64,000 nt of DNA from Octopus vulgaris (taxonomy: Eukaryota): positions 24,304,001 through 24,368,000 of the forward strand of contig OX597815.1 in the NCBI GenBank assembly GCA_951406725.2, written 5' to 3'. Position 1 is the first letter of the stretch, and the number at the start of each line of letters is the position of its first letter. The notes beneath the pieces were generated by a model. That model saw only the letters and a program-made list of their open reading frames with translations. It made no database searches and was not told the DNA's origin. This document shows, piece by piece, positions 1,701-63,809 of the stretch. Position numbers and translations under genes: made by a program.

Positions 1701-3625
1701 GATTCTGGGGTATAATTTGCAGCTGGTTGGTTACAATTTCTGGCAGGATGTACAACCAATGCTTCTAGAAAATAGATATACATTTATGTGACTTAAGCAA
1801 ATAAAGTTGATTTAAGTTTTGCTTTTGGCTTAGGTTTAATTCTGTAAGTCTGTTTTATCTAAGTTAATAAAAGGAGTTTTGATATAAGCTTTGGGGCTTT
1901 TCTCATATATGTTAAGCACAATGCAGAACAGTAGATCTATTTATTCAGTCTTACAACAGTTTTTTTTATTTGACATTTTCAAGCTTCTAGCATGGAAGTA
2001 GAGAAGGAAAATGTGCTACTTTCTTGTCAGTACAGCGTGGATACCTTTCCTCTTGAAATGAATTTAAATTCAAAATTGCTGAGACCGTGTTAGATGAAAT
2101 AATGTGAACATTGTTTATTTATCAGTTAAATGTTTCTTTAACTGTTTTCACAGTGAATGGTTTGTGCTGTTTCAAATGTGCGTTTCAACAAATGTATTTT
2201 TGTTAAAATGAGATAGTTTATATTTTCTTTTTAATTATTTTAAAATTAAGTAACTAACTTACCATTAAACTTTATAATTAGCATTTAGCTTGTTACATTG
2301 CTCCATCTTAATGATAGTTAAAACAGTATTGTTTATGGTGTGTATTATTGTTGTGTCAGGGGTTACCTATGTTGAAATGTGCTCCATGGGTAACCCAAAT
2401 AGTATCTTGGTGAATTCTTTTATTTGGTTGTTCAGTTACCTTAGTTTTATGTTTTCATCTCATTTCCATTGTCTTTCATGTCTGTTCTATTTCTTCTTTA
2501 CCTATTTTTGCTTTAACTTCATTTCTTTCCTATTAATTCAGTTTTATCACTCTACCTATCACTCAAAATTGTGTTTACTAATTAAATTCTTTGAACAATA
2601 TATTCATTATATCTTTTCTGAAAGTCTTGTTTGTTAAAACCATTCCCCTCTTACTTAGCCATTTCTTTACCACCAGAGAATTGCTTGCTTTATTTATTGT
2701 CTTCAGTTATAGGTTATCAGATAAGGCGTTTGTTTTCTGTTAAGCTACCAATTTTTTTTTTGGAAAGACCATTGGCAGATTATTTTCAACATAATTAAAC
2801 ACTATCTTACTATTTACCAAAGTATATCTTAACATTTAGCATTAATAGAAAGTGTTCTAAAAGTGATTCTTGCCACTAACAAGTTTGGAGCTTAAGCTGA
2901 TATGGTTTTTGTTCCTTAAAGAATTGATAAGCTAAGTATAGTAGGGATTAAAAAAGAAAGTTGCTTACTGTGAATTGATCTGAGTGCTTGATTTTATAGA
3001 AAAGCAATTCCTAATTTTGGGTTTTAGTCATTTTACAAGAACTATTTTTGCTTAACATGTTTATAGTGTACAAGTATTTTCTCTGGTAAAGGTATGGTTT
3101 CAAAGCCAAATTCCAAAATGGAAAAGCATAAAAATTATGAACTTGTAGTACATGATGAAACCTAAGGTAGTGTTTAAAATCCACATATAAAAGAAATTCA
3201 CCAATGTGGTTTTTAAGTACTTGGTCTTGTGGTTCGCCACTAATGTGCGCGTGTGTGTCTCTTCTCTAACTAAAATCTAAAATAAGTAATCTATAAGATT
3301 GTCTATATATAGAAGTAAATATTCACACAGGAACTCAGTCCTTGGGGAAGAGTTTTAGTGACCTGGGGAGGACAAAGGACATAGGCTAAGTTTCAGAATG
3401 TGGCTAAAAAAGTAAAGGGGTGGGGCTTATTTTAAAATGTGCAAAGTACTCTGTAGAGCACCATTTTTTCTTTCTTTTTTTAGTTAAAATAGAAAGTATT
3501 ATCTGTAAAAATTGTGTTGTAGAAGTTCTGGAATTGAATTTTTACTTTTTGAAATAGTTTAAATAAAATCCATGATGTTATGAAAAAAGCCATATGCTTT
3601 AATATTTATCTATTTTTACTTGCAG

Positions 3626-3782
3626 ACATATTCTGGATTGTTCTGTGTTGTGGTGAACCCTTACAAGAGGTTACCTATTTACCAGGATAAGGTTATTGAA
3701 CTCTATCGTGGCAAGAAACGGCATGAAGTACCACCACATGTTTTCGCTATCACAGATACAGCTTACAGAAGCATGCTTCAAG
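3626..3782 (+). CDS. MYH10: Myosin II exon, 157 nt: [52 protein letters not shown]
   Basis: Acceptor ttttacttgcag and donor G|gtaaag (phase 1); translation is the canonical myosin head N-terminal segment. Confidence 0.96.
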
Positions 3783-4140
3783 GTAAAGTAGAATAAAAAC
3801 AAAATTCAATATATCATAAATATTTAACTATGTTTAAAAATTTTAAATCAACTTTCCAGCATTAACTCAAAACTTAATAGCTATACAGAAAAATATTTTT
3901 AATATTAAGAAAACAAATGTTTTTTTTTATTTCTTACATCTGTTGATCCTTCTGTTTATCTTTGCTGTATCTCACTTCCTGGTTACTAAATATTTCTTGT
4001 ATTTCTTCAGAACTGCATACTTCAATACTTTGTTCCACGTCCTCCTGTCTCTTCTACAACTTCCCTCCACTTTAAGTAGAGGGAGACCCAGGAGGACATG
4101 CATACATACATACATACGTGTGTGTGTGTGTGTGTGTATG

Positions 4141-4171
<31 letters not shown>

Positions 4172-4320
4172 CAAAAAGCAATAAAGATTCAAGTTAATTT
4201 AAATGAATTTACTTGAATATGGTACCTAACTTAGATGCACCAAAAAAAACTATACTGATTTAACAATACAGTAATGTGGGGTGATTATAAGCGAGAATGA
4301 AGCAACAAGAATGGATAGGT

Positions 4321-4411
4321 TTTTAGTACAATCGTTTCATACAAGGACAGGTTTTATTAAAAGTTGCAAAAATTACAGCATATAAACGTGTCCCGTACTC
4401 ATCAGCTAAAA
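4321..4411 (-). ncRNA. Type I hammerhead ribozyme, mirror copy in the left inverted arm
   Basis: Reverse complement of 4956-5046. Confidence 0.72.
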
Positions 4412-4955
4412 TACATGTGAGTTCTCTAGACATCCTAGTGGTTGAGGCTATACTCATGAAGTAATGTAGATAATTAAGTAACATAAACAGATTTCAAAAG
4501 TTCATTAAAGTTCTTTAAAGATGATGTACAGTCTTATCACAGAATTTTAAAGCCAAATTCCAAAATGGAAAAGCATAAAAATTATGAACTTGTAGTACAT
4601 GATGAAACCTAAGGTAGTGTTTAAAATCCACATATAAAAGAAATTCACCACACCCTCTCTGTAATGCTAATAAGCAGGAATTGAAACCCACCTCGTTGTA
4701 ATTAACAATGGATAAATTTGTCTTCTGTGAGTATGTAATCCCTCATCATATCTCTGGAAATTCATATGTGCACTATGGATTAGGTCACCTTCTCTGTGAT
4801 GCTATTAAGACTTTTTTAAAAATTCTGTGATAAGACTGTACATCATCTTTAAAGAACTTTAATGAACTTTTGAAATCTGTTTATGTTACTTAATTATCTA
4901 CATTACTTCATGAGTATAGCCTCAACCACTAGGATGTCTAGAGAACTCACATGTA

Positions 4956-5046
4956 TTTTAGCTGATGAGTACGGGACACGTTTATATGCTGTAATTTTTG
5001 CAACTTTTAATAAAACCTGTCCTTGTATGAAACGATTGTACTAAAA
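4956..5046 (+). ncRNA. Type I hammerhead ribozyme (sense to the myosin pre-mRNA)
   Basis: Stem I TTTTAG/CTAAAA, core CTGATGA (4962-4968), stem II GTACGGGACA/TGTCCTTGTAT, GAAA (5029-5032), short near-palindromic stem III ACGATTGT, cleavage triplet GUA (5038-5040). Confidence 0.75.
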
Positions 5047-5074
5047 ACCTATCCATTCTTGTTGCTTCATTCTC

Positions 5075-5110
<36 letters not shown>

Positions 5111-5111
<1 letters not shown>

Positions 5112-5354
5112 CTGGCGTCCATATCGGTGACATATAAAAGCACCAACCGATTGTGGCCATTTGCCAGACTCATCTGGCCTCTGTGCCAGTGGCAAATAAA
5201 AAGCACCCTCTACACTCGTGGAGTGGTTGGCGTTAGAAACACTGCCAGATCAGACTGGAGCCTGGTGCAGCCTCCTGGCATCCCAGACCCCAGTCGAACC
5301 GTCCAACCTATGCTAGCATGGAAAACGGACGTTAAACGACGATGATGATGATGA
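5111..5354 (+). mobile_element. SINE family C 3' part (tail CATGCTAGCATGGAAAACGGACGTTAAACGACGATGATG)
   Basis: The same tail recurs at 1-30, 8553-8723, 31640-31905, 32445-32709 and on the minus strand at 47683-48110. Confidence 0.75.
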
Positions 5355-5746
5355 TATATATATATAATATCTGCAATATACTTATTCTGAAACCTGTTCA
5401 GCAGGTATGCATTGTTTCAGATTGCTATTAATTTTGATCTTGCATCATCTCATTTTGGCAACCTCCATTTGTGTCTGTGTCTTTCTTGGTTGTTCCCTGC
5501 TACATTTTCTTTCACTGTCAACACACTCAGCTTTTGTTGTTTGTGTCACATACCAGTGCTACTGTCTGTCTTGTATACAACAGCTGGAGTTGTTAATGTA
5601 TAACCATGCAGATTGCTTGTATTCCACCTCTGAATAAATGTTATTAAGTCATTTATGTAAAAAGGATGTGAATTTTTTGATGTAATTTACTCTGATATTA
5701 GAATCTTACCCTTCATTCTCATCTTAATATAGGCCACTTAGCATAT

Positions 5747-5925
5747 TGGTTTCAAATTTTTGCACCAGGCCAGCAATTTTGGGGTAGGGGCTAGTTGATT
5801 ACATCAACTCCCATAGCTCAACAGAATGAACAACCTTGGTGGAATTTGTGCTCAGAACATTAAAATGAATGAAATGCTATTAAGCATTTTGTTCATCATG
5901 CTAACAATTTTGCCAACTCGCCACC
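5747..5925 (-). mobile_element. Old tRNA-derived SINE family D
   Basis: Similar to the copies at 28628-29055 and 45512-45706. Confidence 0.55.
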
Positions 5926-6378
5926 ATAGACCACTAAGCTTCAAAAAGAGCTCTTTCAGTTCATCATTAACCATTTGAATAAAGCCATTCTCCTCAATGA
6001 TAAGCAGAGGACTGGAATTTTATATATTTAATACTTCCAAACCAACCTTGTTTCATGTTGCCATCATTGTGGAATTCCTGACAGCTTTGAAGTTCTCTTT
6101 GTTTGCATAGACTCTTAGATCTCAAATCCACACCTGATTGCTGCTATAGTGACAATCATTACTCATAGGTTAACTGGTGTACTAGATGTTCACTGTGATG
6201 TTCACGTTTTTGCCTTAGATATCACTAAAACAATTTTGCAAGGTCTGGTATAGAGGATTACTTCGTAGCCTGACTGGCTACAGTAAATATTTTCCACCAT
6301 CAAATCATTTCTGATCAGAAGAAATCTGTAAGTTAGCATCAGCAGTCAGTTCTCTGACATTTATGAAATCAATGTAAA

Positions 6379-6541
6379 CACAAGAGTGGCTGTGTGGTAA
6401 GTAGCTTGCTAACCAACCACATGGTTCCGGGTTCAGTCCCACTGCGTGGCATCTTGGGCAAGTGTCTTCTGCTATAGCCCCGGACCGACCAATGCCTTGT
6501 GAGTGGATTTGGTAGACGGAAACTGAAAGAAGCCTGTCGTA

Positions 6542-6596
<55 letters not shown>

Positions 6597-6790
6597 CTGT
6601 GTTTGTCCCCTAGCATTGCTTGACAACCGATGCTGGTGTGTTTACGCCCCCGTCACTTAGCAGATTGGCAAAAGAGACTGATAGAATAAGTACTGGGCTT
6701 ACAAAGAATATCCCGGGTTCGATTTGCTCGACTAAAGACGGTGCTCCAGCATGGCCGCAGTCAAATGACTGAAACAAGTAAAAGAAAAAG
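6379..6790 (+). mobile_element. tRNA-derived SINE family A, full length
   Basis: A/B-box-like head (GTGGCTGTGTGGTAA ... GGTTCAGTCCC), internal (TA)n(TG)n, tail GGTGCTCCAGCATGGCCGCAGTCAAATGACTGAAAC; near-identical copy at 17876. Confidence 0.85.
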
Positions 6791-7737
6791 AATAAAAGAA
6801 AACTTCCTTGGAATCTTTCTGTAGTCCTGTGCTCTTTTTTATTCCTTTGCTCCAGTAAAGTAATGAAATTTTTTATCGACATATTTGCTGATGGTACATC
6901 ACTAAGAACATCATACACTTGAAACTAGCAGCAGGTCTTTCCAGAAATCTAGCTGAGTTTGTGCAATAGACAAAATTGCTTGTTACATTTAATGCTTCCA
7001 ACAGCAACCGTATTTCTCTTTACCACTATTGTGGAATTCCTCTTCATCCCACGACTGTTTTGAAAGAGTCCCCTTGTCTAGATCGCTGTAGTTCTTAAAC
7101 CCCGATTTGAGATGGGGCTCTAACATTATTTTTGTTGCTGAGGTGGTGGTTAGAATAATGAAAGTCATTCGACCACTCAAAAATATTCCTAGCATCTGAA
7201 GTTCTATTGTATCTTTACAAGAGGCAAATCTGCTTTAAAATGTAGTACTGGTTACACGTTTGGATTGGTTCTGCTGGTCATGTATTGTTGATCAGTGTTG
7301 AATTGATTATGTTGTGTAGCTTGTAATAAGTTCTTTTCACCACTGCAACTCCTCTGTCGATATTGCAAGTCGAGCTCGTTTCTATCATTATTTCCAAAGA
7401 TATTGATGTAAACTTCATTCTTCAGTCCCACTCGTCCAAGTAATTTCCCTTAGAACATAGTTTGCCAAATTTAATGAATTGTCCCATTACTTCATGGTTA
7501 TCTAATGCTGTTAGTTTCATGCAAGATGTTTTTGTCCAGGAACAGCTAAATTGTGAAATACTTTCTTTTCCCATTATTTTCTTGTTTTGTTCTTTTAAAA
7601 TTCAAGATTAAGAAATGCCTTACCATGTTGGTAGTTTACTTTGTGGGCTGGCAGAGTTGGAATTACACCAAAGGTCATTGGGGTCCCTTTTATTTTTTTG
7701 CACATTTCTGCACTATCCATAAAGTAATATTTGTTTA

Positions 7738-7930
7738 TGAAGTATATTTGCCACCTGTGGCTGACCCATATGGGACGATGCTACTGTAGTTTATAGCCCC
7801 AGGAAGACATCTCCTCCAGCTGACTAACAACACACTGTCTGCAGCTGGAGGAGATGTCTTCCTGGGGCTATAAACTACAGTAGTGTCATCCCATATGGGT
7901 CAGCCACATTTAAGTGGCAAATGTACTTCA
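7738..7930. repeat. Fold-back inverted repeat (67-bp core arms 7756-7822 and 7842-7908, 19-nt loop)
   Basis: The arms are reverse complements apart from three transitions; pairing extends outward through TGAAGTATATTTGCCAC / GTGGCAAATGTACTTCA. Confidence 0.9.
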
Positions 7931-8509
7931 CGATATTGTGCTGCTACTGTTTACATCTTGCTCAGATTTATTATTGAATATTTGTTTAATCTTGTATATA
8001 TGTGTGAGTGCATGATACAGAACAAGAAATTTAGCACTTATTTTTCTTATAGTTTTATCAACTATACATATAGCACTAAATATAAAATAAATCGAAAAGA
8101 ATAAAAGAAAAAAGTACATCCATTCATATCACTACAAATGCGAAGACTTTACACTCTGCTAAATTTATGGCTTTGTGCTTGTATTAGAAATAGTTTGATT
8201 TACATACAAGGCCAGCAGTTTTGAAGGGAAAATATAATTTAATTTGGTGTGTATAGGTATTGCAAACTTACATTTGAGTGTATGTGTATTGTAAGTTCCT
8301 CGATGTTTTCTTAGCATGAGTGCTTGAGGACTACAGTTACCGGTTTAAAAAAGGCTCGAAAGATAGGGAGATTGTTTCAAAATATAAAGCAATTGAATTT
8401 GAATAGAAACTATGTTTAAAGTGTGTTGTGATGATTGGTTAAGTAATGGTTTTCAATTAGCAAAGGCAAAATTCAAAGTTGAGGTAAGTGGCAGGTGGTC
8501 TGTGGAAGT

Positions 8510-8552
<43 letters not shown>

Positions 8553-8556
<4 letters not shown>

Positions 8557-8723
8557 CACCATTCAATTGTGGCCGTTTGCCAGCCCCGTCTGGCACCTGT
8601 GTCGGTGGCACGTAAAAAGTACCCACTACACTCACGGAGTGGTTGGTGTTAGGAAGGGCATCCAAGACCCCAGTTGAACTGTCCAACCCATGCTAGCATG
8701 GAAAGCGGATGCTAAATGATGAT
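8553..8723 (+). mobile_element. SINE family C fragment
   Basis: Shared body and tail with the other family C copies. Confidence 0.7.
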
Positions 8724-8754
8724 ATATATATATATATATATACATACATATATC

Positions 8755-9053
8755 TCACCATGACCAATCAGGCTATCAGATGTTGTTACACATCGCTGGT
8801 CACAATGCGCTTCGCATTGTTTTAGCCTTCAAATGACGCCCTCCCGCTGGCTAAGCGAGCAGGCCAACAGAAGAAAGAGTGAGAGAAAGTTGTGGCGAAA
8901 GAGTACAGCAGGGATTGCCACCACCCCCTGCCGGAGCCTCGTGGAGAATTATGTGTTTTCGCTCAATAAACACTCACAACGCCCGGTCTGGGAATCGAAA
9001 CCGCGATCCTACGACCGCGAATCCGCTGCCCTAACCACTGGGCCATTGCGCCT

Positions 9054-9055
<2 letters not shown>
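8755..9055 (-). mobile_element. tRNA-derived SINE family B, full length
   Basis: Minus-strand head GGAGGCGCAATGGCCCAGTGGTTAGG ... GTTTCGATTCC; copies at 29932-30218 and 58334-58500. Confidence 0.85.
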
Positions 9056-9089
<34 letters not shown>

Positions 9090-9300
9090 ATACAGAGGGT
9101 ATATAATCTGTTTTTCTTTATTTTCTCCCTTCTTGCTTTTTCACCAATCATTTTTAGAATGAGACATTTTGACTTAAATTAATACCTCAATTGGATCTCA
9201 TTAGTGTCTTGTGTATCGACATGGTTACAATTCAATATCCTTTTTACATTGTAGATATCAGTAATCAATTTGTATTGACTTTATAAGATTATTTAAATGC

Positions 9301-9917
9301 CTTACTTTTCTTCTCTTTCTCTCTTCTTCTCTTTCTCTCTTCTTCCTCTCTCTCCTTCCTTTCTCTCTTCTTCCTCTCTCTCCTTCCTTTCTCCCTTCCT
9401 CTCTCTCTCTTCTTCTCTCCTCTCTCCCTCTCTTTCTCTTCATCTCTCTCTCCTCTTCCTCTCTCTCTCTCCTCTTCCTCTCTCTCTCTCCTCTTCCTCT
9501 CTCTATCTCCTCTTCCTCACTCTATCTCCTCTTCCTCACTCTATCTCCTCTTCCTCACTCTATCTCCTCTTCCTCACTCTATCTCCTCTTCCTCTCTCTA
9601 TCTCCTCTTCCTCTCTCTATCTCCTCTTCCTCTCTCTATCTCCTCTTCCTCTCTCTATCTCCTCTTCCTCTCTCTATCTCCTCTTCCTCTCTCTATCTCC
9701 TCTTCCTCTCTCTATCTCCTCTTCCTCTCTCTATCTCCTCTTTCTCTCTCGCTCTCTCCTCTTCCTCTCTCTCTCGCTCTCTCCTCTTCCTCTCTCTCTC
9801 GCTCTCTCCTCTTCCTCTCTCTCTCGCTCTCTCCTCTTCCTCTCGCTCTCTCCTCTTCCTCTCGCTCTCTCCTCTTCCTCTTTCCTTTCTTCCCTTTCCC
9901 TCTCTCCTCTCTCTCTT
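9301..9917. repeat. Polypyrimidine (CT-rich) low-complexity tract with a ~21-bp periodic core
   Basis: Almost only C and T; repeated CTCTCTATCTCCTCTTC. Confidence 0.95.
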
Positions 9918-12900
9918 GGATAGTCTCAACTATTATTGAATAAACTTACCTCTGGCTGGGGAATAATCAATTGAGCATAAAATATAGTCCAGTTTGACCA
10001 CTTATCCAAGTATGTTAGTAGGTATTGACCTTGGAGGACTGGAAATATTGATTTATTAATATTTTAAATCTTGACAAAACACTTCCATAGTCTTCATCTG
10101 TACAAAAGTTTCAAAATGTCTTGCAGTTCACATGTTTCCTATAAAGCTAAAATTTTATCATATTCAGGACCATGTCCTGTTTTACCAGAAAAAAATGGTA
10201 TATTATCAGTTGTTTCTATAATAAAGAGAGCTTTCTTGAGGAAATCTGTGTGCAGGAAGAAACTTCTTTGAGTAGGCAATGAAACTCTCCTTATATTGTT
10301 TGACGTCATCCTGGAGTCCCTTCTTTTAAGCCCCTGTATACAACATCCCTAATTGACAAATGGCATATTTGTCTTTTGATCACAGTCTTAACTTTATTAT
10401 GGTCAAAGCAACTTAATTCATAAAGTAATTAATGATAGTCATAGTATAAATAATTAGTTCTTTTATGCAATGTTTGTGCTTGATTGGAATTGCTTGGAAA
10501 TGTCTGTAATTAAGAAATTTACTTTATGTGACACCTTTGTCTTCTACTATAGCCCCAGGCCAACCAAAGGCTTGGTAGAGGGAAATTGAAAGAAGCCTCT
10601 CATAAATAAACGTGTGTGTGTTTTTGTCCTGACATCACGTGTTGCTTGTAGATTGAGCAGCATTGCTATACAAGCAATATGTTTTCAATCTTCCATGAAA
10701 AACATCTGGCCATGGGAAATATTACCTTGCTTGGAAACAAGTGAGGGTTGGCAACAGGAAGGCCTCACCAAACTCTGTTCGGTCCATGCAAGCATAGAGG
10801 AGTACATGTTAAATGATGGTCATACAAGTCTTGTTGGAATCATTGTTAGACCTTGAGTTTTTCTTTTTGGTCTCCTATTAAACTGTTCTCTCATTTGGAC
10901 CCAACACTAACAATTACAGCCTGTTTGATTTCTTCTGCATTTCTATTTTATATACCTGGTTTTCTCTGTGGAGTTAAAGTTGATAGCTTATTTATCATTG
11001 CTTTAAAAGTATGTCATACTTAATCTAAGAAATAAGAATTTGTTTGCATATCAAGTAATCTGGTTAAACAAATCTTACTAAAAGTAACTAAAACAATTTC
11101 ATTAATTCTGACCATTTACATTCTAAATTACACAGGGTTTCATTTGAAACCCCTATAATGGTGCATAGCTCTCCTTTAAGTTGATCTACATCATGGTTAT
11201 CTCTTTGACATTACTAGATCCCTTCTACCACCACCTCCATAGAACACTTACCCAAGAAATTATTCTTTGAATATCCTGTAAAAATTTATAAGAAATTTAG
11301 TGACATTCTTGTCTTGACATTGATTTAACAATTTAACTATTATTTGGGACCTGATAATTAAGTGAAGTCTGGCATGGAAAGTAATATTAGACTTATTTTC
11401 TTGACATCTCTATACAAAAATATAAACTATGTAGCCACTTGTTAAAGGAATTACTTGGCTTTGGTATTGTCTCAAAATAATGAAATATTTTCTGAACCAA
11501 ATGCCAAAGCACCACCTTATTTTAAAAATTTCAAGATTATACTAATTTCTTCTAGGCATTTTCTTTGAACCTGAATTAGCAGTTGGCATTCAAAATTTAA
11601 TTTTACATACACTCTGACATTTGTACTGTGATACATATTTTCTCTTATGTTAATAATAGGAACAGTTTAAAGAATTTGTAAAACGGAATAGATAGCATTG
11701 AATAAAAAATGTCATTTCATTGTTGAATTTTTGAATTCTGAGATCTTTACAATAAGAGGCAAATGCCTAACTGTTTGTTACTGTTTGAATTAAGAAATTT
11801 GTTAGGATTTATTATTCTCAAGATTGATTTTCTGATGAATACTAGATAAATTTTTGTCAGTGGAAAGCCTTTGTTATATTGGTTAATGGATTTGTTTAAT
11901 CTTCTGAAATAAACGAGGTTTAGTTGTCTGAAGTCTTGAATATTCCTTGGTCATTTCACAACCAAAACACACAAAGATTTGTTCTTAAATTTTTATTCAT
12001 ATAAAAAATTTAATATGCATAAGAAAAATATAAAATATCTTATTTCATTTTTTTTCTTTTGTAGTTGAGTTTTATTTTAAGATCTTCAGTATTATGTGTG
12101 TTTATTCAAAGAATGTATTGCTTCCTTTGGTTCTCTTAGTATTTCTTGTAAGAATGGTCTTCAAACTATATACTCAGTTGTGACACTTAAACGCTGACCT
12201 CTATAGATCAGCACGCTTGGTAATAAATTTTAGTGTTTAATTAAAGATTTATAAGTCACTCTATCAGAATTATATTGCAATCTATATTAAAAAATTTTTT
12301 AAACTCATTTGCTTTCATATACTAAATTTTGATTATGTATATTTATGAGCTCTGTAATGACAAGAAATCCTATTTTTTGTTTTATGATACTCATGCTAGA
12401 ATTTTGAGTTTGACTTTGTTGCTTCTACTTTTTCTACATTAACTCATTCATTAGTATGCCATAGTTAAAAGTTATAAATAAAATGTTGATTCCTCTACAT
12501 GGCAATGTCTGTCACACTTTAAACCTCTCTGAGAACTTTGACATATGTCACACAATAATTTCTTAATCTTATTTTTATTAGTTTTATTTTTAATGACTAA
12601 TGGAGAATTTACAGTGCAATGCCTGCCACTTCCTGATAATGTGAGATATACTGAAGAAAAATGGTCCTTTCTGCTTGACATTCTTGAGATATTTTGAAGA
12701 CATTTTTTTTCTTTTTGTTTTTTCAAAAAACTTCTTCCTTTTCCATCTAACCCAAACACACAGAGTATCCCTTCACTAGGGAAAGGGAAGATGAGAGTAC
12801 AAGGAGGAAAACATTAATCTTACTCCAATTACTTGTTTTTCTTTTCTTTCCCTAGAAAGTATTTCCTACTGATTTGGGCTTGTCTACATACAAAGCGCCC

Positions 12901-15900
12901 CCTGTTTGGCTATTTTGAGTAGAAAAATTCTTGCATCAGTTATGTTTTTTTTACTAGCATATCTATAGAACTAGGCTGTTTACATTATTTAACAGTTTCA
13001 CATTAGTTTTTATAAAGCAATTTTACATGGCATTTTGAACTAAAATTGGAAGCATACAGTATGCTTCTTATTTTTGTTTAAAATGCCATAAAAACTATTT
13101 TAGTGACCAATTGAAACACCATCATAGTTCTTTTTTCATCAGCGGATGCTTTTAAAAATTAGTATTTAGTTTCCTCACTGTCCTTGTTTATTTTGCTACT
13201 GATACAAAACAACCTTGTAGAGCCGAGATTAATTACATGCTTGAAAATTTAACTTCACTTGTTGATTCATTTGAATGTTTTTAGAGTATTTTTGTTATAC
13301 ATCATTAACAGTGAACAGGAAAGCAATCTTGTGACTGAGGCTGCTTCCTCAGTTTTAATATTTTATCAGCCTAGCTAACTAATGCAATAGTAATTAACAA
13401 AAATATTTACAAATTAGATGCCATAATATACTAAGTTATGTTAAGAGTAAAAAGTTCATAGCTTTACAATAGGGAGCATATTTTATTAATTCTGACCTTT
13501 TTGAAAATTCTTTAGTGTTGGACACATTGTTAATTAAAAAGTGGAGGAAAAGTGATAGTAATTTTTATGCTAGTTAGCTCAAAACGTGAATGACTGCAGT
13601 TGGCATTCAGTATTTGTAGCAAAGTTGTAAGAGAGAAAAAAAAAAACAAAAAAACTATTTTCTCATAATTACTTTGGCTGCTCATCCTGCAATTTATTTC
13701 TAATAAAGTGAGAAGTTATTTAACAGTTGCACAATTCTATAATATTGGTAGGTTACCTTAATAAAAAATATGCAAGTTCCCTTTTCTTCTATTAGCTTCA
13801 TAATTCAAACTACTATTATGTACCATTACCAGTTGGTGTCTCGTTGCTGTACGATATCTACAAGTCTTATCTCTTTGTATTGTAGTTGCTAATTTATTAC
13901 ATGGAATGTCACAATGGTTGAAGTCTTTTCTGTGAGATGTAATAACTCTTGATGTATAGCTATACTTTAGTTAGTATCATGATCATTAACTTAGTAGTTC
14001 TGCAGCAGTTTTTTCTCATTACTTCTAATTTTACAAGCCATTCCTCTCCAGTCTTGAACTTAACATTTTTTTTTAATGTTCCATCAGTAAGAGGCCGATC
14101 TGCTTTAAATCCTCAGCATCCCAGTACTTTCCAAGAATCTGTTAATGAATCGATGTTCACTGATCGAAAAAGACATTTAGAAATGCTATGTTTCTATATA
14201 AAGAGCATAGAAGGAATAGAAGAGCTGCTACAAATAGATCCTTAACATTTTACTCATCTGCCGTGTACATATTAGTAAAATGTTAAGCAAGGCTATTGAA
14301 AGTATCAAAAAAAAAACCAAAGAAAAAAAGTGATTTATGAAAGTAGAAAATCTAGGTGCCTCTGGATTTTGTAGTAGGCAGTAATCACTTTTGTCTATAT
14401 AAGTGAAATGTTATGCGCTGTACATACATTTATCATTTGAGATAACATGCATCTCTCATCACTTGTCAATTTCTACAGTTGCTATAGTAGTGATGTACTG
14501 AGAATTTGTTGGGAGCTGAAACTAATACACTAGTTAATGAAGGTAGAGATGAGTTATCATAGAGCTAGTGCAGGGCAGTATATATTTCAGTTACACTGCG
14601 ACAAGAGAATATTAATAACAACAAAAATATCAAGTGTTTGTCCCTTTCTAACTTGTGAAGAGAAGTGGGAGCAGCTTTATCTGTTACACCTTGCATATTT
14701 TCTTGGGTGGGTATGAAGAATAAGCACAAGATTAGTTATATATTGAGTTATTTAAAATGTAATTTATTCATAACGGTTGTTTTCATAGCCTTGTTTCTTT
14801 CATACTTAAGAATTCAGATTCTCACAGCATAATTTACTACCTGAATAAGTTAATAGGGGATAAATTGAGTGAATTCTTTTATACTGTTATGGTTGCCGTC
14901 CAAGACCATAAATTTGCCTTCTACCTTAATAATATGATGATAATTGACCAAATTGCTTGAAGTGAAAACTTTTCATATCTTTTCACTGACATCCCCAGCA
15001 AAGTTAGTTCTTAATAATCCAATTTCGCCTAGTTTAAATAGGATATCATATGGTAGTATGGCTTATTGCTGCAAGTAGAGGTGCATTGTAACAGCTCTTT
15101 TATTAGCTAGCAGTGTTGGAAATCACTCTTGGGTAGCTTTTCTAAGTCTGTGTAGTTCATTCATCTGTAGGCTAAGTAGTAGTCAATAACGACTCAGTGA
15201 CATTCTACCATATAATATGACCTTCATAACTCCAGAAAAGTCTCACCTTAAAACTGTAGGTTAGGTGTCAGTCATCTTATATATGAATGTAAATTTTTAA
15301 ACATGCTTATTTATATTGGTGAACAAGTATTTCAAACCAAAAATTTTTTAAACTTAAATTCACGCATATATTCATATATGAAATATGTCCTATACTGTAA
15401 GGTATTAAATATACTGTTTCATTATGTATAGAATACAATATTTCATAGTATTTTGTATTCTCAGAAACCATTGTTATAATAAAAGAAATCATAAATTGTC
15501 ATACTTCATATATTCTTGTAGTTCTGCTGAATTTAATTTAATGTTATAATTTTATTATTTAGTAATTTCATTTAATTGCTTTATACTTAATGTTTGTTAC
15601 ACAGACAAATTTAACATTTCATCAAGTTAAATTCTTGTAACAGTTGTCAATATTTCTAAAGAGTTCATAGGTGAAGCCAGAAGGAGGCTTTATGTGGTTC
15701 TTGACATGCTGGAAATGCCAGCTAAATTTCCATATTATACTCTCTTGTCTTTATATAATAATGTAATTCAATATAGTCACCCCCTAAAAAGATGGTAAAT
15801 GCTGGAATATCTTGAGGTTAGGTCTGCTTGATCAGAGATGACCTAGGGCTAGATATGCTAATTAATGGATAAATCTGTGATTGAAAGTTATTATCCACCA

Positions 15901-16614
15901 AGCACCTTGCTATAAATAATTTAGCTCTATTATAGTTTTGACTTTAAGAAAAGAACTTCAGTTCAACTTCAAAGAAAAAATAAAATAACTCTTTATTGTC
16001 AAATAGAGGAAATATTCTAAAATGTTTTTGATTAGTTAAATAAAATTATTTGCAATTGGAGACAATACTGATTAAATAATAATTACATCTTTAGATAAGT
16101 ATATGTAGATGACTTCACTTGCTGCTTGATTTTGTTGACTAATGGTAGGTAGACACCGATGTTATTTTTGGAGAACAGGCATGATATAATTCTGTAAACT
16201 TGCAGTTGAAACCAACTACCAGTGCTGCTGTTAAGTGTCATTTCAGAATCCCATTCATGTCTGTTAGTAGTTCATAGTTAGTATGTAATTAGGAGTCACT
16301 TGTAAAACGAGATAAAATTTTGCAGTGAGTGTGTGTGTTTGTGAATAAGATGTTAAGCAATGAGTTGTAGGTGATGCCAAAATTGTCAATAAATGTATAA
16401 AAAAATTTTTTATTCACATTACATAGAGCTACATTTAATATTTTGTAAAATGTTTTATTTTTAATTAGTATAATATTACTAATTTGTTTTTTTTTTATGT
16501 ATAAAGTAAGTTATTTAATTATATATATATATATATCAATGATAAATCTCTGAACGAGATGTAAACAGTAACTGCTCGACAACGTAAAGTATACTTAGCC
16601 ATCTCAATATATAT

Positions 16615-16920
16615 ATCTCAGAGGTCCACAGCTCTTCAATATCCTCCCGAAGAACCTGAGAGACCTGCATGGGGTGGATGCAGATGTCCTTAAAATAAAG
16701 CTGGACCTCTTCCTGTCAGGTGTCCCAGATGAACCAACTTTACGGCAAGAAGTGCAGATGAGGGCAGCTGCATCGAACTCTCTCATGCACCAAATGTCAA
16801 TTGCTAAAAAGCATTCGTGAAGTAAAATCATGTAGCAACACTGAATGGTGGTGCCCCAGCATGGCCACAGCTCGTGAGCTGAAACTAGATAGAATAAAAA
16901 AAAAATAAATAAAATAAAAA
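16615..16920 (+). mobile_element. CR1-group LINE 3' end
   Basis: Reads GPQLFNILPKNLRDLHGVDADVLKIKLDLFLSGVPDEPT, then a 3' stem-loop and A-rich tail; resembles the C-terminus of ORF 60174-60779. Confidence 0.75.
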
Positions 16921-17015
16921 ATATAATGATAATAAGGGTAAAATTAATTAATTTTTTGGCTGCTATTTCTAAAGTTCAGATTGTGGTGAAGCAAATTCTT
17001 TTGCCTAACCCTTAT

Positions 17016-17067
<52 letters not shown>

Positions 17068-17875
17068 TTAGTAGTCAGTTGAATTAACTTCACTATTTCA
17101 TAAGTTATATGTCAATGTAAGATAGTGAATTGGCAGTCATTAGTGTAGAATGATAGTATGCTTTGTGGTATTTACTCTGATTCTCTGTGTACTGAGGTCA
17201 AATACTTCTGAGATCAACTTTGGTTTTCATCCTGTTGAGGTTAATAAACAAAAATTACCAGTCCAGAGTAGTAGATTGACAGAATTGTTAGAGCGCCAGA
17301 CAGGATATTTTGTGCTATTTGTTCCAGCTATTTGCATTTGGAGCTCAAATCCTGCTCTTACTGGAAAACGGGAACATTTCTGTTAAGAATTGCAGTCAAC
17401 AGATAGTATCAGCAGTTTGAAAAGTTGATGAAAACAGATTTCTTGATTCAGTTGAAATGATTTCCTTCCACTGAAATAATAATTTATATATTAATACTCT
17501 ATTTTGTGATAATTATCTGGATTCTCATTATTCAAACTTAGTATTTCAAAGAATTTGACTAATGATTGGAAACACTTTTTGCCATTATTATTTTTTTCCC
17601 CTTTATTAAGAAATATTTGTCTTGTTAGTATCTTAATTATCTAATATTATTCTCAGATTCTTTAAATATTGGTAGTTCTTCAAAGTGGTGTCTGTGGTTA
17701 TTGAGAAAATTCCTTTTTTTTTCAAAACGGTGTCTGTGGTTATTGAGAAAATTCCTTTTTAGACAGACTACATAAGCAATTTGTTAAACTTAGTCTTACC
17801 CTAACACTTACTATATTAAATGCTGATCAGAGAATTATTAACCTTAAAAAAATATTGATCTTGTAAGTATATATA

Positions 17876-18268
17876 GGCGCAGGAGTGGCTGTGTGGTAAG
17901 TAGCTTGCTAACTAACCACATGGTTCCGGGTTCGGTCCCACTGCACGGCATCTTGGGCAAGTGTCTTCTGCTATAGCCCCGGGCCGACCAATGCCTTGTG
18001 AGTGGATTTGGTAGATGGAGACTGAAAGAAGCCCGTCGTATATATGTATATATATGTATGGGTGTCTGTGTTTGTCCCCCTAGCATTGCTTGACAACCGA
18101 TGCTGGTGTGTTTACGTCCCCGTCACTTAGCGGTTCGACAAAAGAGACCGATAGAATAAGTACTGGGCTTACAAAGAATAAGTCCCGGAGTCGAGTTGCT
18201 CGACTAAAGGCGGTGCTCCAGCATGGCCGCAGTCAAATGACTGAAACAAGTAAAAGAGTAAAAGAGTA
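17876..18268 (+). mobile_element. tRNA-derived SINE family A, full length
   Basis: Near-identical to 6379-6790; ends in (GTAAAAGA)n. Confidence 0.88.
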
Positions 18269-18462
18269 GTATTAATGATATTGTATATAAAAAGTTTCTT
18301 AGTATTTGAAATTAATCTCATGTTCAAAACTTATGATATTGTTTTTCTTTTTGCATTCATCATGATTTAAACTCTTATTTTCTCTCTACATGCATAATGT
18401 ATATAATTTTGAGTGTTGGTATAATGTATCGAAAAATTAATTGGAAATTTTCTTTTCCACAG

Positions 18463-18490
18463 ATCGAGAAGATCAGTCCATTCTATGCAC
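18463..18490 (+). CDS. MYH10: Myosin II 28-nt constitutive small exon: (D)REDQSILC(T)
   Basis: Acceptor ttttcttttccacag and donor AC|gtgagt; it bridges the phase-1 donor at 3782 and the phase-2 acceptor at 28044. Confidence 0.95.
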
Positions 18491-26800: not shown

Positions 26801-27147
26801 TTCTGCTTACTGAAACCTCACCTTTTACTTGACTATTTCTGCCCCTTTTGGAGACTTCAGAATATAATGCAGAGGCAATGAGAACTGGGATGGATTCAAC
26901 TATGCCAACCTCTGCTTGTTGGACATATTGCACCCTAGAACTATATAGTTGTTACAGTAATGACTGTATTGGTATCACCTTCCATACTTGTAAACAACTT
27001 AACTTTCCTATTACTTTCATCAACTTACCATCCTGCCCTAGATTTCACAGTTACCATCTTGATAACACACACATTGCTTTGAATTTGTCTTCTCTTGCAC
27101 CTGCTTCAAATGTACCTTGTCTTGTATTTGCTTCACATTTGCCATCC

Positions 27148-27290
27148 CTTGTACCTGTCCCACAATTACTTTCTCTTGTACCTGTCCCACAATTACTTTC
27201 TCTTGAACCTGTCCCACAATTACTTTCTCTTGTACCTGTCCCACATTTACTTTCTCTTGTACCTGTCCCACAATTACCTCCTTGTGTACC
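27148..27290. repeat. 27-bp minisatellite CTTGTACCTGTCCCACAATTACTTTCT, about 5 copies
   Basis: Direct tandem copies visible. Confidence 0.9.
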
Positions 27291-27972
27291 TACCCCTTGT
27301 TTTGTACCAGCCCCAAATTTGCCTTCTTTTGTTTTTGCCATGTCTTTTCCTTCTCTCATACCACTACCATATTTACTTCCATTTTCTTCTCAAGTCTGGC
27401 TGTCCATTTTTTAAAATTTATTTTTTATTTGTTTAATTCATCTTTGATGCCGTCTGTCTCTCCTCTTAATAGTTTTTATGTCTGCATTACAAAAAAATAT
27501 TTCTATCATATCATTGTATATCTGCCTCATTGACTCACTTTCTAGTTTCTCATGTCTCTTTTCTTTGATTAATTTATATCTCCTGGGATTGGGAAATGAA
27601 ATTCCTTTGGATCAACTGGAAAGTACTGTGGTGTTTTTCATGGACATAGTTGTTTATTACAGTTTCTTTACCTACTGAAATATAAATAATCATTCTCATT
27701 TCTTGAATGGCTTAAAGCAGGTATCCAATTGGAGCAGATCTGAAGTTGCAGAATCCTCCAAACCATGTTAAATTGTGAACTGTTTTAAAATAATCTTAGA
27801 ATGAAAACAATAATAGAAAAAGTAATTGTGTATCGAACAGGAAATCTATAAAGTGATGATAACAAAATATAATCAAACTATTGAATAGCCATTATAATTT
27901 CCACCTGCCAATATAGAATCATTATTAGAATTGCAATTTCATTCTTATGGACTGTGAACGAGAGAATGTTGA

Positions 27973-28188
<216 letters not shown>

Positions 28189-48110: not shown

Positions 48111-49177
48111 TGGTTCAATTTCGATTCCGATTGGATAACCATGCATGTGATTTCTGATGGATTTAGGGATAAGACGTTTAACTCTTAAAGGCCAAGGTCA
48201 ACTATTTCTAAATACCAATCTAAAAGTGTTTTCTTTGCTCACAGTGCCAGGTTCAAAACTATGTTTAGAATAAAAGCAGCATCTTTTTCAGAAGAAGGAC
48301 AGTTGGGCTTTGATCCAGCAACTCCTTATTACTTGTAATAATTTATGTGTTTTTTGTTTTTGAAGTCATGCTGGTAGGAGACTGAAACAAACCGAGAGGG
48401 AGTGAGTGGCAGTTAAAGATGTTAAAAAAAAGAGAAAGAAATCTAATTGCAAACAAAATGCTTAACATTTTGATGGTAAATTATAGAAATTCTCTCACAC
48501 ACACACAGACATTGGATGTGCCATTAATAAGTGTTGTCATTTTGACAGCATGAATAATGTTGCAGAAATCCTTGATGTAAATTGTCTAAGCTGTTTGCAC
48601 CGCCACAAGATAGCTTCATGAGTGGAATGGAAAAAATTTACCCTATTTCTTTTGTAACACCTCACTCTAATGGCATTTCTCCAATTAGTTCTGCTAAGAA
48701 GAGACACTTAGCTCTTACTCTTACTTCATCATCATTATTTAACGTCTGTCTCCCATACTGGCATAGTTTGGACAGTTTGACAAGTACTGGCAGGACAGTG
48801 GACTGCATGGGCTTTATGGATGGATGTCTTCCCTAACACCAACCACTTTACAAAGTCGACTGGATGCTTTTTTACATGGCACATGCATGGAAGCTCCAGC
48901 TTTGCTAAATATAATTGAAGATCTAAGTGGCATTGTTATATCAGAGAAGCTTTCAGATTAGATGCACATCACTGTGTCAATATTAGGGATATTTTCAGGA
49001 AACAGCTAGTTTTGTTGAGATTAATAGCTTAATTCAGCATTTTATGTTTACCTTGATAAATCCTTTTTCTTTCAGAGGCCAAAGCCTTGTCTATTCACAT
49101 CTGATCTCTCTTTCTTTCTATCTCTCTCAAATGGATCATGTTAAGATAATTTTTTTTTTATTTCTATATTTTGACAG

Positions 49178-58594: not shown

Positions 58595-59253
58595 TTAAAG
58601 ATATTTTCAAGGTCCCTGTTCTTAGAGTTGGTGTAAGTTTGGGGTGAACTCTGTAGATTTTATGTGTGACACTTGGGTGTGGAAGGTTAAGGAGCAATGC
58701 TGAGTTGCATCATCTGCTTAGGAATGGGTATTATTAGAGTTAAATCATATTTAGTGGGGGAGAGAGGGAGAAAGTGTGTGTGTGGGAGGGAGGGAGACAA
58801 AACTAAACCCTGTGGCACACTAGAGTTGATCATGTGGGTCGGAGGGAACTATCAGCATACACCATGATAATTACAACCTGACAGGAAGCCATCAATTTGT
58901 TTGAATACTTTTTAATGAAAATTTTGATACAATAAATAAGAACAAATGATATTAGAATTGTCAGTGTCGTTTTTATTTTATAAACCATGATACCCATAAC
59001 CCAGCAGCAGTTCAAGGAAATTGTTCAAGAGGAAATATTTATCATTGATTAAAATTTGTTGTTGACCATAGATCTGCTTGAATAAGCAGATCTATGGTCA
59101 CAAGCATTAAAGCTGTAATGACTATCTTGTTTCCTGTCTACCTGTCCTTTTTTTACCTTGTTTTGTTAATAAGTGTGCCCTGAGCAACGTTATCCAAGAT
59201 AAGTTAGTTTGAGGGAGATTTGGTTGCAATTTCTAATAGATCATGTGACCATT

Positions 59254-59619
59254 CAGTGATGTCCAGAGCATTTTGAGTGATGTCCAGAGCATTTTGAGTG
59301 ATGTCCAGAGCATTTTGAGTGATGTCCAGAGCATTTTGAGTGATGTCCAGAGCATTTTGAGTGATGTCCAGAGCATTTTGAGTGATGTCCAGAGCATTTT
59401 GAGTGATGTCCAGAGCATTTTGAGTGATGTCCAGGGCATTTTCAGTGATGTCCAGGGCATTTTCAGTGATGTCCAGGGCATTTTCAGTGATGTCCAGGGC
59501 ATTTTCAGTGATGTCCAGGGCATGATCAGTGATGTCCAGGGCATTTTCAGTGATGTCCAGGGCATGATCAGTGATGTCCAGGGCATGATCAGTGATGTCC
59601 AGGGCATTCTCAGTGATGT
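59254..59619. repeat. 21-bp minisatellite (AGTGATGTCCAGRGCATTTTS), about 17 copies
   Basis: Head-to-tail copies with no spacers; sequence variants are arranged in blocks. Confidence 0.95.
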
Positions 59620-60090
59620 TCGTATAGGTTTGATTTGGAATTGATAATTTCACAAGCCTGATCCAAAAACTCACTTTGTATAGGCAGTATAAATATACGT
59701 GTTTTATGTTATAAGTTTTAATCTGGATACATTTAGAAAATAGTTTTTATCTTTAAATGTAAATACTTAGAAATCTCTTTCTTTGCTCTTATTTCAATGT
59801 CTGAAGCCTAACTTTTCATTGTAAGGCTTATTACAATGGAGGCATTGTGTTTTAAATAACTGTTTCATTGCAAGGTAAATGAAACCTGTTTCTTGATACT
59901 TTGAAGGTATTATGTACTGTATTTAATCACATTTTTTTATATATTTATATATATTTTTATATATATTTATATATATATATATATTTTTATATATATTTTT
60001 ATATATATATATATATTTTTATATATATATATTTTTATATATATATATTTTTATATATATATATTTTTATATATATATATTTATATACTT

Positions 60091-60786
60091 ACTTTGATAC
60101 TTTGATAGGTTTCGGCCATTATTGGCCCAGGCCATGTCTAACTTAATAGCACCACCTGGTGAAGTCTTTCAAGTCAGAATTTGGGCACTATGGCCCACTC
60201 AAGTAGAGAGTTATTGTTTACAGAGACATATCCGGGTGTAGGGGGTTTATCCGGGATTTCTTGAAGGAATCTGTCCAAAGACTTCTTGAACCCTATAGGG
60301 TCAGTTTCTGTTTTAATGTGTTTTGGTGTAATGTTAAAGAGAGCGGGGCCAATTGAGGTGAAATAATTGTGCCGTATTGTTGTTATGAGATGAGAGTGCG
60401 ATTTTTGTTTTGGGCGGATGGCACGGGGCCCAAGCCTTGGATGTACCTTAAAGGTGATGCCAACATCATTTGGGCAATGTTGATGGAATATTTTCCACAT
60501 CATGCAGATGATGTAGCGCTCACGACGACGTTGGAGAGAATAGAGTTTTAGCTTTTCTAGCCGACCCCAATAGTCGAGGCCTGTCATGCCATCTATCTTT
60601 TTTGTGATTGCCCTTTGAGGTGCTTCAACTTTTATGATACCTTGTATTGTGTGGGGAGACCACAGTGGACAACAGTATTCAAGGTGGGGTCGGGCAAAAG
60701 TGGAGAAGAGAAGGATAATGGTGTGGATATCTCTCGACTGGAAAGTTCTGAGAATCCAGGAACACATTCTGCGGGCCATGTCAACA
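60091..60786 (-). mobile_element. CR1-group LINE 3' fragment with an open 201-aa ORF2 C-terminus
   Basis: [43 protein letters not shown]; 3' stem-loop and (TATCAAAG) tail; both flanks TA-rich. Confidence 0.85.
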
Positions 60787-62820
<2,034 letters not shown>

Positions 62821-63044
62821 TTTCATCAGGAGAGACACAAATAAGTGAGAAGAAAACAAAGGACCACTGATGCGGTCACAGGAGTGCGACGAAAGAACTC
62901 TGGCCGAAATAAGATTAAGATTAATGTAAAAAATAAATATCACTGAAGCAAAATAACACCAAATATATAGTGCGTGTGTTTTTATTGGCTAAACTGGCAA
63001 TATGACCATTCCGAAATATAACAATATATATATATATATATATA

Positions 63045-63275
63045 TTCTTCTTTCCCCGTCTGTCTTGATAGACAATGGGTTGCGCCAAGGGTGGGGCCTA
63101 CTTTGATGATGTGCAGCGTCTGCTGTGACTGAACAGTCCAATTCTAGAGTGGCAGTCCTTGGTACAGTTGCTGCACACGAACATCGATGGGTACGTGTGG
63201 TGTGTTGCTGCAGTTGTCCTCCTGTCCCGCCTGTCCAACCACAGCTGTGCTCTCCTCTCCTCAGCCATGGAAACG

Positions 63276-63278
<3 letters not shown>
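63045..63278 (-). mobile_element. RTE-clade LINE 3' end
   Basis: The minus strand reads [23 protein letters not shown], the RTE C-terminal Cys/His motif, with a (GAA)n tail; set in (TA)n. Confidence 0.75.
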
Positions 63279-63355
<77 letters not shown>

Positions 63356-63809
63356 TTATATATATATTTATATATATATATATATATACATACACAGCAG
63401 GTGTAACTATAAAATTTATCACTGATCCAAGCAAATCTTATTTGAAAAGCAACAGAATCTCCTCATCCTTCAAACATTACATCAGTCATTGCCAATTTGT
63501 TGTTCCTACCTATTTAGAAGTTACTGTACTATGATAAAAATGTGAACCCAGTCTTTTTCTTACCTCTTCTTGTGATGGCTGATAAATATTTTTCATTGTT
63601 TGATATACAAAAATATCTTTTCCTTCTATAGTGCTAGAAAATTTTTTTAATTAAGTTCATATTTTTCATATAAAAATAATAAATTTAGCTCATTTAGCTT
63701 ACCTTCCTTTCTTTTAAAATTTATAATGGAAACCTATTATATATTTCATCTTATTTTTCTTCAGTTTGACTACTAAAACCTTGTTTGGTTTGTAACTTAA
63801 AGTATTTAA

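Follow-up and report, generated by a model that had tools for sequence, protein, structure and literature searches.

Organization of the locus

The window, i.e., the whole stretch of 64,000 nucleotides from Octopus vulgaris analyzed in this study, carries part of a myosin II heavy chain gene on its plus strand. An exon with AG/GT borders at 3626–3782 (+) was assigned to the non-muscle/smooth type, as phmmer matched it to myosin-11, myosin-9, and myosin-10 with an E-value of 1.5e-25, versus 1e-19 to the striated myosins. The next exon, at 18463–18490 (+), closes an intron of 14.7 kb (3783–18462), and further motor-domain exons were located at 28045, 41656, 45186, 50440, and 63924 by a scan with peptide motifs taken to mark such exons. 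Tandem arrays with units of 19, 27, and 21 nt, as well as an extended tract of AT-rich, low-complexity sequence, also lie in the myosin introns (9350–9900, 27060–27400, 59150–59700, and 59850–63400). A hairpin with 67-nt arms, 96% complementary and separated by a 19-nt spacer, lies at 7756–7908 in the 14.7-kb intron.

The longest inverted repeat of the window was found in the same intron, where the segments 4292–4548 and 4819–5075 are reverse complements at 257 of 257 nt, with the first mismatches at 4291 and 4549. The left arm begins 510 nt 3' of the exon at 3626–3782, and a spacer of 270 nt separates the two arms. These arm lengths, the gap, and the distance to the exon had all been claimed in the original prediction and were borne out by alignment. 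The arms are parts of a larger insertion that occupies 4172–5075 and is bordered on each side by a (TA)n tract (4146–4171 and 5076–5107); hence, the span of 4292–5075 initially proposed was right for the arms, but it left out a tail of 120 nt.

Both copies in the insertion are 5'-truncated 3' ends of one element. The left copy is antisense to the myosin transcript and extends past its arm (4292–4548, minus strand) by the 120-nt tail (4172–4291, minus strand), which matches the last 120 nt of a natural full-length copy found at another locus (L041). The right copy (4651–5075, plus strand), which holds the right arm, is 100% identical to positions 4106–4529 of that full-length element and stops at a shorter 3' end, referred to here as the short end. 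Neither arm contains the other. The spacer is composed of 168 nt of the element and 102 nt of copied host intron (4549–4650, plus strand); its length had been given correctly in the earlier reading, in which the host segment at the inversion junction was overlooked.

Identity of the parent element

Copies of the arm are abundant in the genome: at least 40 were 100% identical to it (40 of 1,265 candidates were scored), and a 19-nt word of its hammerhead motif had 814 exact occurrences genome-wide. At L041, an identical arm terminates an element of 4,649 nt with an open reading frame of 952 amino acids. This was the one copy that reached element position 1, and it has no direct pseudo-LTR upstream; Hydra-1_Obim is likewise listed without a pseudo-LTR (PMC8557442).

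The predicted fold of the 952-residue protein found its best matches among the telomerase TERTs (E-value 4.6e-9; model pLDDT of 75). The protein contains the motifs RWK (at residue 37), DKT (at 124), YRDD, and CxCX5C (at 813), followed by VIY...YIG at residue 832 and a region with R, H, E, and N; the VIY...YIG motif is conserved in the homologue P0002. No CxxC was found within the GIY-YIG core, while a CxxC occurs at 910 and a CxH at about 940. A CCHH motif and an N-terminal GxKF/Y were both absent, and the sole GxKY, at 554, lies inside an Asn-rich insert. Two such inserts of low model confidence were observed at residues 487–573 and 659–809 of protein P0001 (29% and 34% asparagine), and the frame stays open across both. 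The Hydra clade of Penelope-like elements (PLEs) is defined by RWK, DKT, a CxCX5C linker, the lack of CCHH, a CxxC and a CxH beside conserved E and N residues, and the lack of an N-terminal GxKF/Y (PMC8557442). Its members target (TA)n, in agreement with the (TA)n flanks at the window and the census sites described below, and they are generally shorter than 3 kb, which is a descriptive rather than a diagnostic trait, versus 4,649 nt for the present element. The element is a young Penelope-like retrotransposon with Hydra-clade protein motifs, where the clade placement is by motifs; the 35 homologues retrieved include no named reference protein. As the hammerhead listed for Hydra-1_Obim differs from the one described here, it represents another family.

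The Penelope origin proposed in the original prediction thus held. The search that it suggested for a parent with a Penelope reverse transcriptase (RT) and a GIY-YIG endonuclease was successful for the former, a telomerase-related RT frame, while motifs point to a putative GIY-YIG domain: neither a profile nor a fold match to such a domain was obtained. Pfam searches of the parent frame and six homologues, as well as a sequence search of the PDB with a 29-sequence profile, returned nothing significant. A non-LTR retrozyme, which is defined by non-coding tandem units that each carry a hammerhead (10.64898/2026.07.22.740005), was considered and rejected, because the arms are the 3' ends of a coding element and not tandem units.

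The hammerhead motif

A type I hammerhead motif with the conserved core, the cleavage triplet, and stems I to III all present occurs in the right arm at 4956–5046 (plus strand, predicted cut at 5040/5041), where it had been reported originally, and again in the left arm at 4321–4411 (minus strand). It has a long stem II and a palindromic stem III, the latter also in agreement with the earlier description. The CPEB3 ribozyme is reportedly intronic.

The Rfam search that had been suggested returned no hammerhead family among its 20 matches at E<=5 over positions 3000–7000, probably due to the long stem II, and free folding of the motif was no better than that of shuffled sequences (z from -0.31 to 0.16). 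In contrast to Rfam, a covariance model that was based on 14 motifs of sister families, with the family of the window left out, identified both copies in the window at 78 bits (E-value of about 1e-15), while the next match scored 22.5 bits. The latter, at 48514–48571, covers part of stem II only and may be a decayed relative. Among 18 distinct motifs, 87.5% of the cells were paired, versus 24–50% in slid controls, and changes on both sides were observed in four of the six stem I pairs and in stem III; in this comparison, the search pattern itself dictated the core and the outer part of stem II, the sequences are related, and some of the changes may reflect CpG decay.

The same long-stem hammerhead was found in several sister families (1,083 pattern matches, e.g., L091–L115, L041:9445–9566, and L075:165–325), where stem III forms perfect palindromes and head-to-head pairs also occur. 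A canonical G10.1-C11.1 pair is present in all 1,083 of these matches, as set by the search pattern. The family of the window carries G.U at 10.1-11.1 and in stem III, where the sister families have G-C. The G10.1-C11.1 pair is highly conserved among type I hammerheads, with exceptions, and G.U also occurs in the published hammerheads of Penelope-13_HM and Penelope-17_HM (PMC8557442). The active fold of the monomer was predicted to make up only about 0.3% of the ensemble, and a lone copy is thus predicted to be nearly inactive. The stem III palindrome suits dimers, and no second sense copy was found in the 64-kb window. Among published metazoan PLE hammerheads, cleavage as monomers did not occur (PMC4209133), and the hammerhead of the Penelope-like element PAc required the protein of the element, while it was dispensable for insertion in vitro (PMC11167929).

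Paired copies throughout the genome

The orientation of neighboring copies within 10 kb was determined for the first 100 of the 814 places with the hammerhead word. Among the 38 neighbors identified, 36 were minus-then-plus (head-to-head), none was plus-then-minus, and two were on the same strand at one complex site. Junctions were also scored at two sets of loci, where most loci had been chosen for matches on both strands and the counts therefore do not give the share of copies that are paired. Set 1 included 60 loci with the window among them: 12 held single copies (although an inverted remnant of 13 nt is left at L034, one of the 12), and the others provided 48 head-to-head junctions, 46 with one tail and one short end and two of other types. 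Set 2 included 40 loci of a more diverged subfamily, from which 22 junctions were recovered at a first pass and 28 after a laxer pass (26 with a tail and a short end and two others, besides 12 single loci). Hence, a junction between one tail arm and one short arm was observed in 72 of 76 cases, a junction with two like ends in none, and another arrangement in four.

The two arms of a pair were far more alike than arms of different pairs. Within the 46 tail and short pairs of set 1, they differed at six of 528 polymorphic positions, versus 5,021 of 20,562 between pairs, and no substitution separated the arms in 25 of the 45 pairs that overlap. Truncation points were near-equal (within 25 nt) in 19 of the 46 pairs, whereas shuffled pairings gave a mean of 2.4 and a maximum of 10; in set 2, symmetric truncation was found in only four of 20 pairs. 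Either arm can be the longer one: the tail arm in 15 and the short arm in 12 of the 46 pairs in set 1, and nine versus seven of 20 in set 2. The short arms often reach kilobases further in the 5' direction than the tail arms.

A further asymmetry was observed at the ends. In 28 of 46 pairs of set 1 and 12 of 20 of set 2, the short arm terminates in a G, one position ahead of the TA run, and its partner, the tail arm, carries a T there. This terminal G was never seen in tail arms (short ends of census pairs are found, e.g., at L003, L051–L090, and L116–L144), and it possibly reflects slippage and realignment at the initiation of reverse transcription. The short arm in the window lacks these two terminal bases.

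Several complex sites were also noted (L128:3833–4631, G000:C2:37617341–37627750, L047, L086, and L149), which comprise two pairs placed side by side, a cluster in minus-minus-plus-plus order, and pairs in which the second arm falls short of both usual ends. Copying of whole pairs from one source pair was rejected, as the junctions vary from site to site.

Junctions and captured host DNA

The junctions showed microhomology, with overlaps or inserts of 1–20 nt, and the inserts were mostly copies of the element's own arms. Captures of host flank were rare, with two cases in 76 junctions, one in 75 when the window is left out, and none among the 28 of set 2. In the window, the captured segment at 4549–4650 is a direct, 100% identical copy of 102 nt of unique intron at 3102–3203, about 1 kb upstream (105 of 106 positions are identical when 3098–3203 is compared with 4545–4650), and the donor and the captured piece are the only two near-identical places genome-wide. 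Short microhomologies were found at both edges of the capture, along with a 5-nt slipped duplication at the right one. The second case, at L069:4000–4124, is a 122-nt inverted copy of L069:5700–5821, located 1.3 kb away and also 100% identical.

The donor in the window is a more upstream part of the same gene, in the orientation expected for copying by the right cDNA, and PLEs can carry host sequences (PMC3846280), both of which are consistent with an RT that switched templates onto the nascent myosin pre-mRNA. Most other junction inserts, on the other hand, are short copies of the element's own arms and resemble the products of polymerase theta (PMC5068794), so that a template switch appears doubtful and DNA repair on a resected flank may be the better account.

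A proposed two-ended model of insertion

Taken as a whole, the locus is very probably a single young Penelope-like insertion, in which two 5'-truncated 3' ends were placed head-to-head in a (TA)n tract of the myosin intron, with the inverted arm most likely a by-product of the insertion. The pairing of one long with one short end, in arms that share one haplotype, suggests that the two ends of a break both served as primers on a single template. In addition, the junction in the window would have formed in place, as it holds DNA of the target site and neither of its arms is contained in the other; the copies of host target flank likewise place both junctions that carry them at the target.

The following series of steps is proposed. 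The element endonuclease would cut both strands of the (TA)n tract, and each 3' end would prime reverse transcription at one of two fixed starts about 115–120 nt apart, with either a single RNA or two RNAs derived from one source as the template. The resulting two cDNA ends of the same polarity would be joined at the target by microhomology-mediated repair or via a palindrome; at the window, the repair would first have taken up a copy of about 100 nt of the intron, located 1 kb away. We consider the core of this scheme, with two-ended priming at one start point each and the joining of cDNA ends by microhomology or palindrome, to be the probable course of events. More tentatively, and with somewhat less than even confidence, the reaction may differ from the twin priming of LINEs as well as from the self-priming model in print: its repair step may borrow 100–120 nt of host DNA from more than 1 kb away, the captured intron piece may be a record of joining in place, and each insertion may hide its own hammerhead in any host transcript, whichever strand is transcribed.

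One alternative is a hairpin that forms by fold-back self-priming before integration, with the tail of one arm trimmed by the endonuclease (PMC3846280, PMC8557442), and the inverted arm would remain a by-product under it. It would account for the common haplotype of paired arms, for the excess of symmetric, palindromic junctions, and for the 19 of 46 pairs of set 1 truncated at nearly the same point; moreover, the short end coincides with a TA-rich word, a possible target of the endonuclease. However, host flank from the target site was found inside junctions at two sites, the short arms often extend kilobases beyond the tail arms, the G at the short ends (versus T in tail arms) goes beyond simple trimming, and symmetric truncation is infrequent in set 2. 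A simple fold-back of one arm onto the other was rejected for the window, where neither arm contains the other. Self-priming is thus considered unlikely, and two-ended priming was preferred.

Proposed masking of the ribozyme and other readings

The original prediction had proposed that the antisense arm, transcribed first, protects the myosin pre-mRNA from cleavage, and that RNA editing could tune this effect; as a fallback, it had named a neutral by-product of a young insertion. The physical basis of the proposal appears sound. The arm duplex has a predicted energy of about -446 kcal/mol and could begin to nucleate 137 nt ahead of the ribozyme during transcription, and a 257-bp duplex that buries the hammerhead is predicted to form in the myosin pre-mRNA. 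The host intron is long, and the hammerhead fold covaries among sister families. In animals, ADAR acts mainly on young repeats (PMC9989829), so that editing of the duplex is plausible.

A function does not follow from this. A head-to-head pair presents its antisense arm first on either strand, and the order of the arms therefore says nothing about adaptation; this geometry is family-wide (36 of 38 neighbors) and symmetric, and perfect pairs are common (25 of 45). By itself, the hammerhead is predicted to have almost no activity, and no protective role is therefore needed. With no second sense copy in 64 kb, G.U at 10.1-11.1 and in stem III where the sister families have G-C, and published metazoan PLE hammerheads that either failed to cleave as monomers or required an element protein (PMC4209133, PMC11167929), a functional, ADAR-tuned mask is very improbable, as is its weaker form, in which head-to-head insertions are tolerated in introns through self-masking. 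Most likely, the antisense arm arose as a by-product when the element inserted and does not act as a ribozyme switch, and the fallback is favored by the family-wide head-to-head shape and the identical copies.

An assembly artefact as the source of the inversion and of the duplicated 102 nt is still less credible: contigs of runs X1, X2, X3, and X5 pass unbroken through the donor stretch and none of the contigs listed for runs X1–X5 bridges the junctions in the window (those of X4 do not cover the captured stretch), so that the site lacks independent confirmation. However, contigs show presence and not absence, and other individuals may lack a young insertion. In addition, both ends lie in (TA)n and follow the family rule of a tail on one side and a short end on the other, and a like capture occurs at a second site. 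The combination of unbroken donor contigs with no bridging contig is a weak hint that the insertion is polymorphic.

Implications

The locus probably has nothing special to offer as a regulatory device. It is of value as one among hundreds of fresh footprints left by a class of retroelements whose integration is poorly understood. The rule of one long and one short end, the common haplotype of paired arms, the extra G, and the rare flank captures are concrete predictions for an in vitro Penelope system. In addition, such insertions supply introns with perfect double-stranded RNA. The host belongs to a group of animals in which RNA editing is known to be heavy.

Comparison with known systems

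Several features of these insertions are already in print: inverted 5'-truncated copies with one-sided tails (PMC8557442, PMC3846280), (TA)n targeting by the Hydra clade (PMC8557442), hammerheads on opposite strands 100–700 bp apart (PMC4209133), and capture of host sequences by Penelope elements (PMC3846280). In vitro, PAc cleaves AT-rich DNA on both strands and extends each of them, and its tail is delimited by two internal RT starts (PMC11167929). Genomic inserts of templated origin have been described for L1 (PMC11702581) and polymerase theta (PMC5068794). A literature search, which covered few subscription papers, found no census of the one-long, one-short rule at Penelope inversions and no target-flank captures at their junctions.

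The closest relatives appear to be in the Hydra clade of PLEs with a C-terminal endonuclease, which includes Hydra-1_Obim and Penelope-13_HM (Craig et al., 2021; PMC8557442). Besides the protein motifs RWK, DKT, CxCX5C, CxxC, and CxH and the lack of CCHH, the (TA)n target, a hammerhead near the 3' end, the inverted 5'-truncated copy, and the one-sided tail are shared. In contrast to the clade's general length of less than 3 kb, the present element measures 4.65 kb, with two Asn-rich inserts and a 3' region of 1.75 kb. Its tail is 115–120 nt versus a published 30–40 nt, and stem II spans about 60 nt in a hammerhead unlike that listed for Hydra-1_Obim (PMC8557442). Similarly, the minimal type I hammerheads that Cervera and de la Pena (2014; PMC4209133) described in metazoan PLEs have the same core, a short palindromic helix III, and dual motifs on opposite strands, while helix II is much longer here, with an inner hairpin, and G.U replaces G-C at 10.1-11.1.

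With respect to the reaction, the green anole Poseidon element PAc (Frangieh et al., 2024; PMC11167929) shares the AT-rich target, the two RT starts that define the tail, and the cutting and extension of both strands. It belongs to another clade, and in the available text no start point is assigned to each end of an inverted pair. The Penelope elements of Adineta vaga (Arkhipova et al., 2013; PMC3846280) provide the same head-to-head inversions, palindromic junctions, and tail on one inverted pseudo-LTR, as well as Asn-rich inserts in the reading frame and captured host DNA. Those inversions were explained by self-priming, and the available account does not trace the captures to the target flank.

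LINE-1 twin priming (PMC11702581) and the inserts made by polymerase theta (PMC5068794) are alike in second priming from the reciprocal end, joining by microhomology, and direct or inverted inserts templated by the flank. However, the inverted segments of L1 barely overlap (PMC11702581), whereas both arms copy the same region here, and theta inserts are mostly shorter than 25 bp and derived from sequence beside the break (PMC5068794), in contrast to the 100–120 nt copied from 1 kb away at the present junctions.
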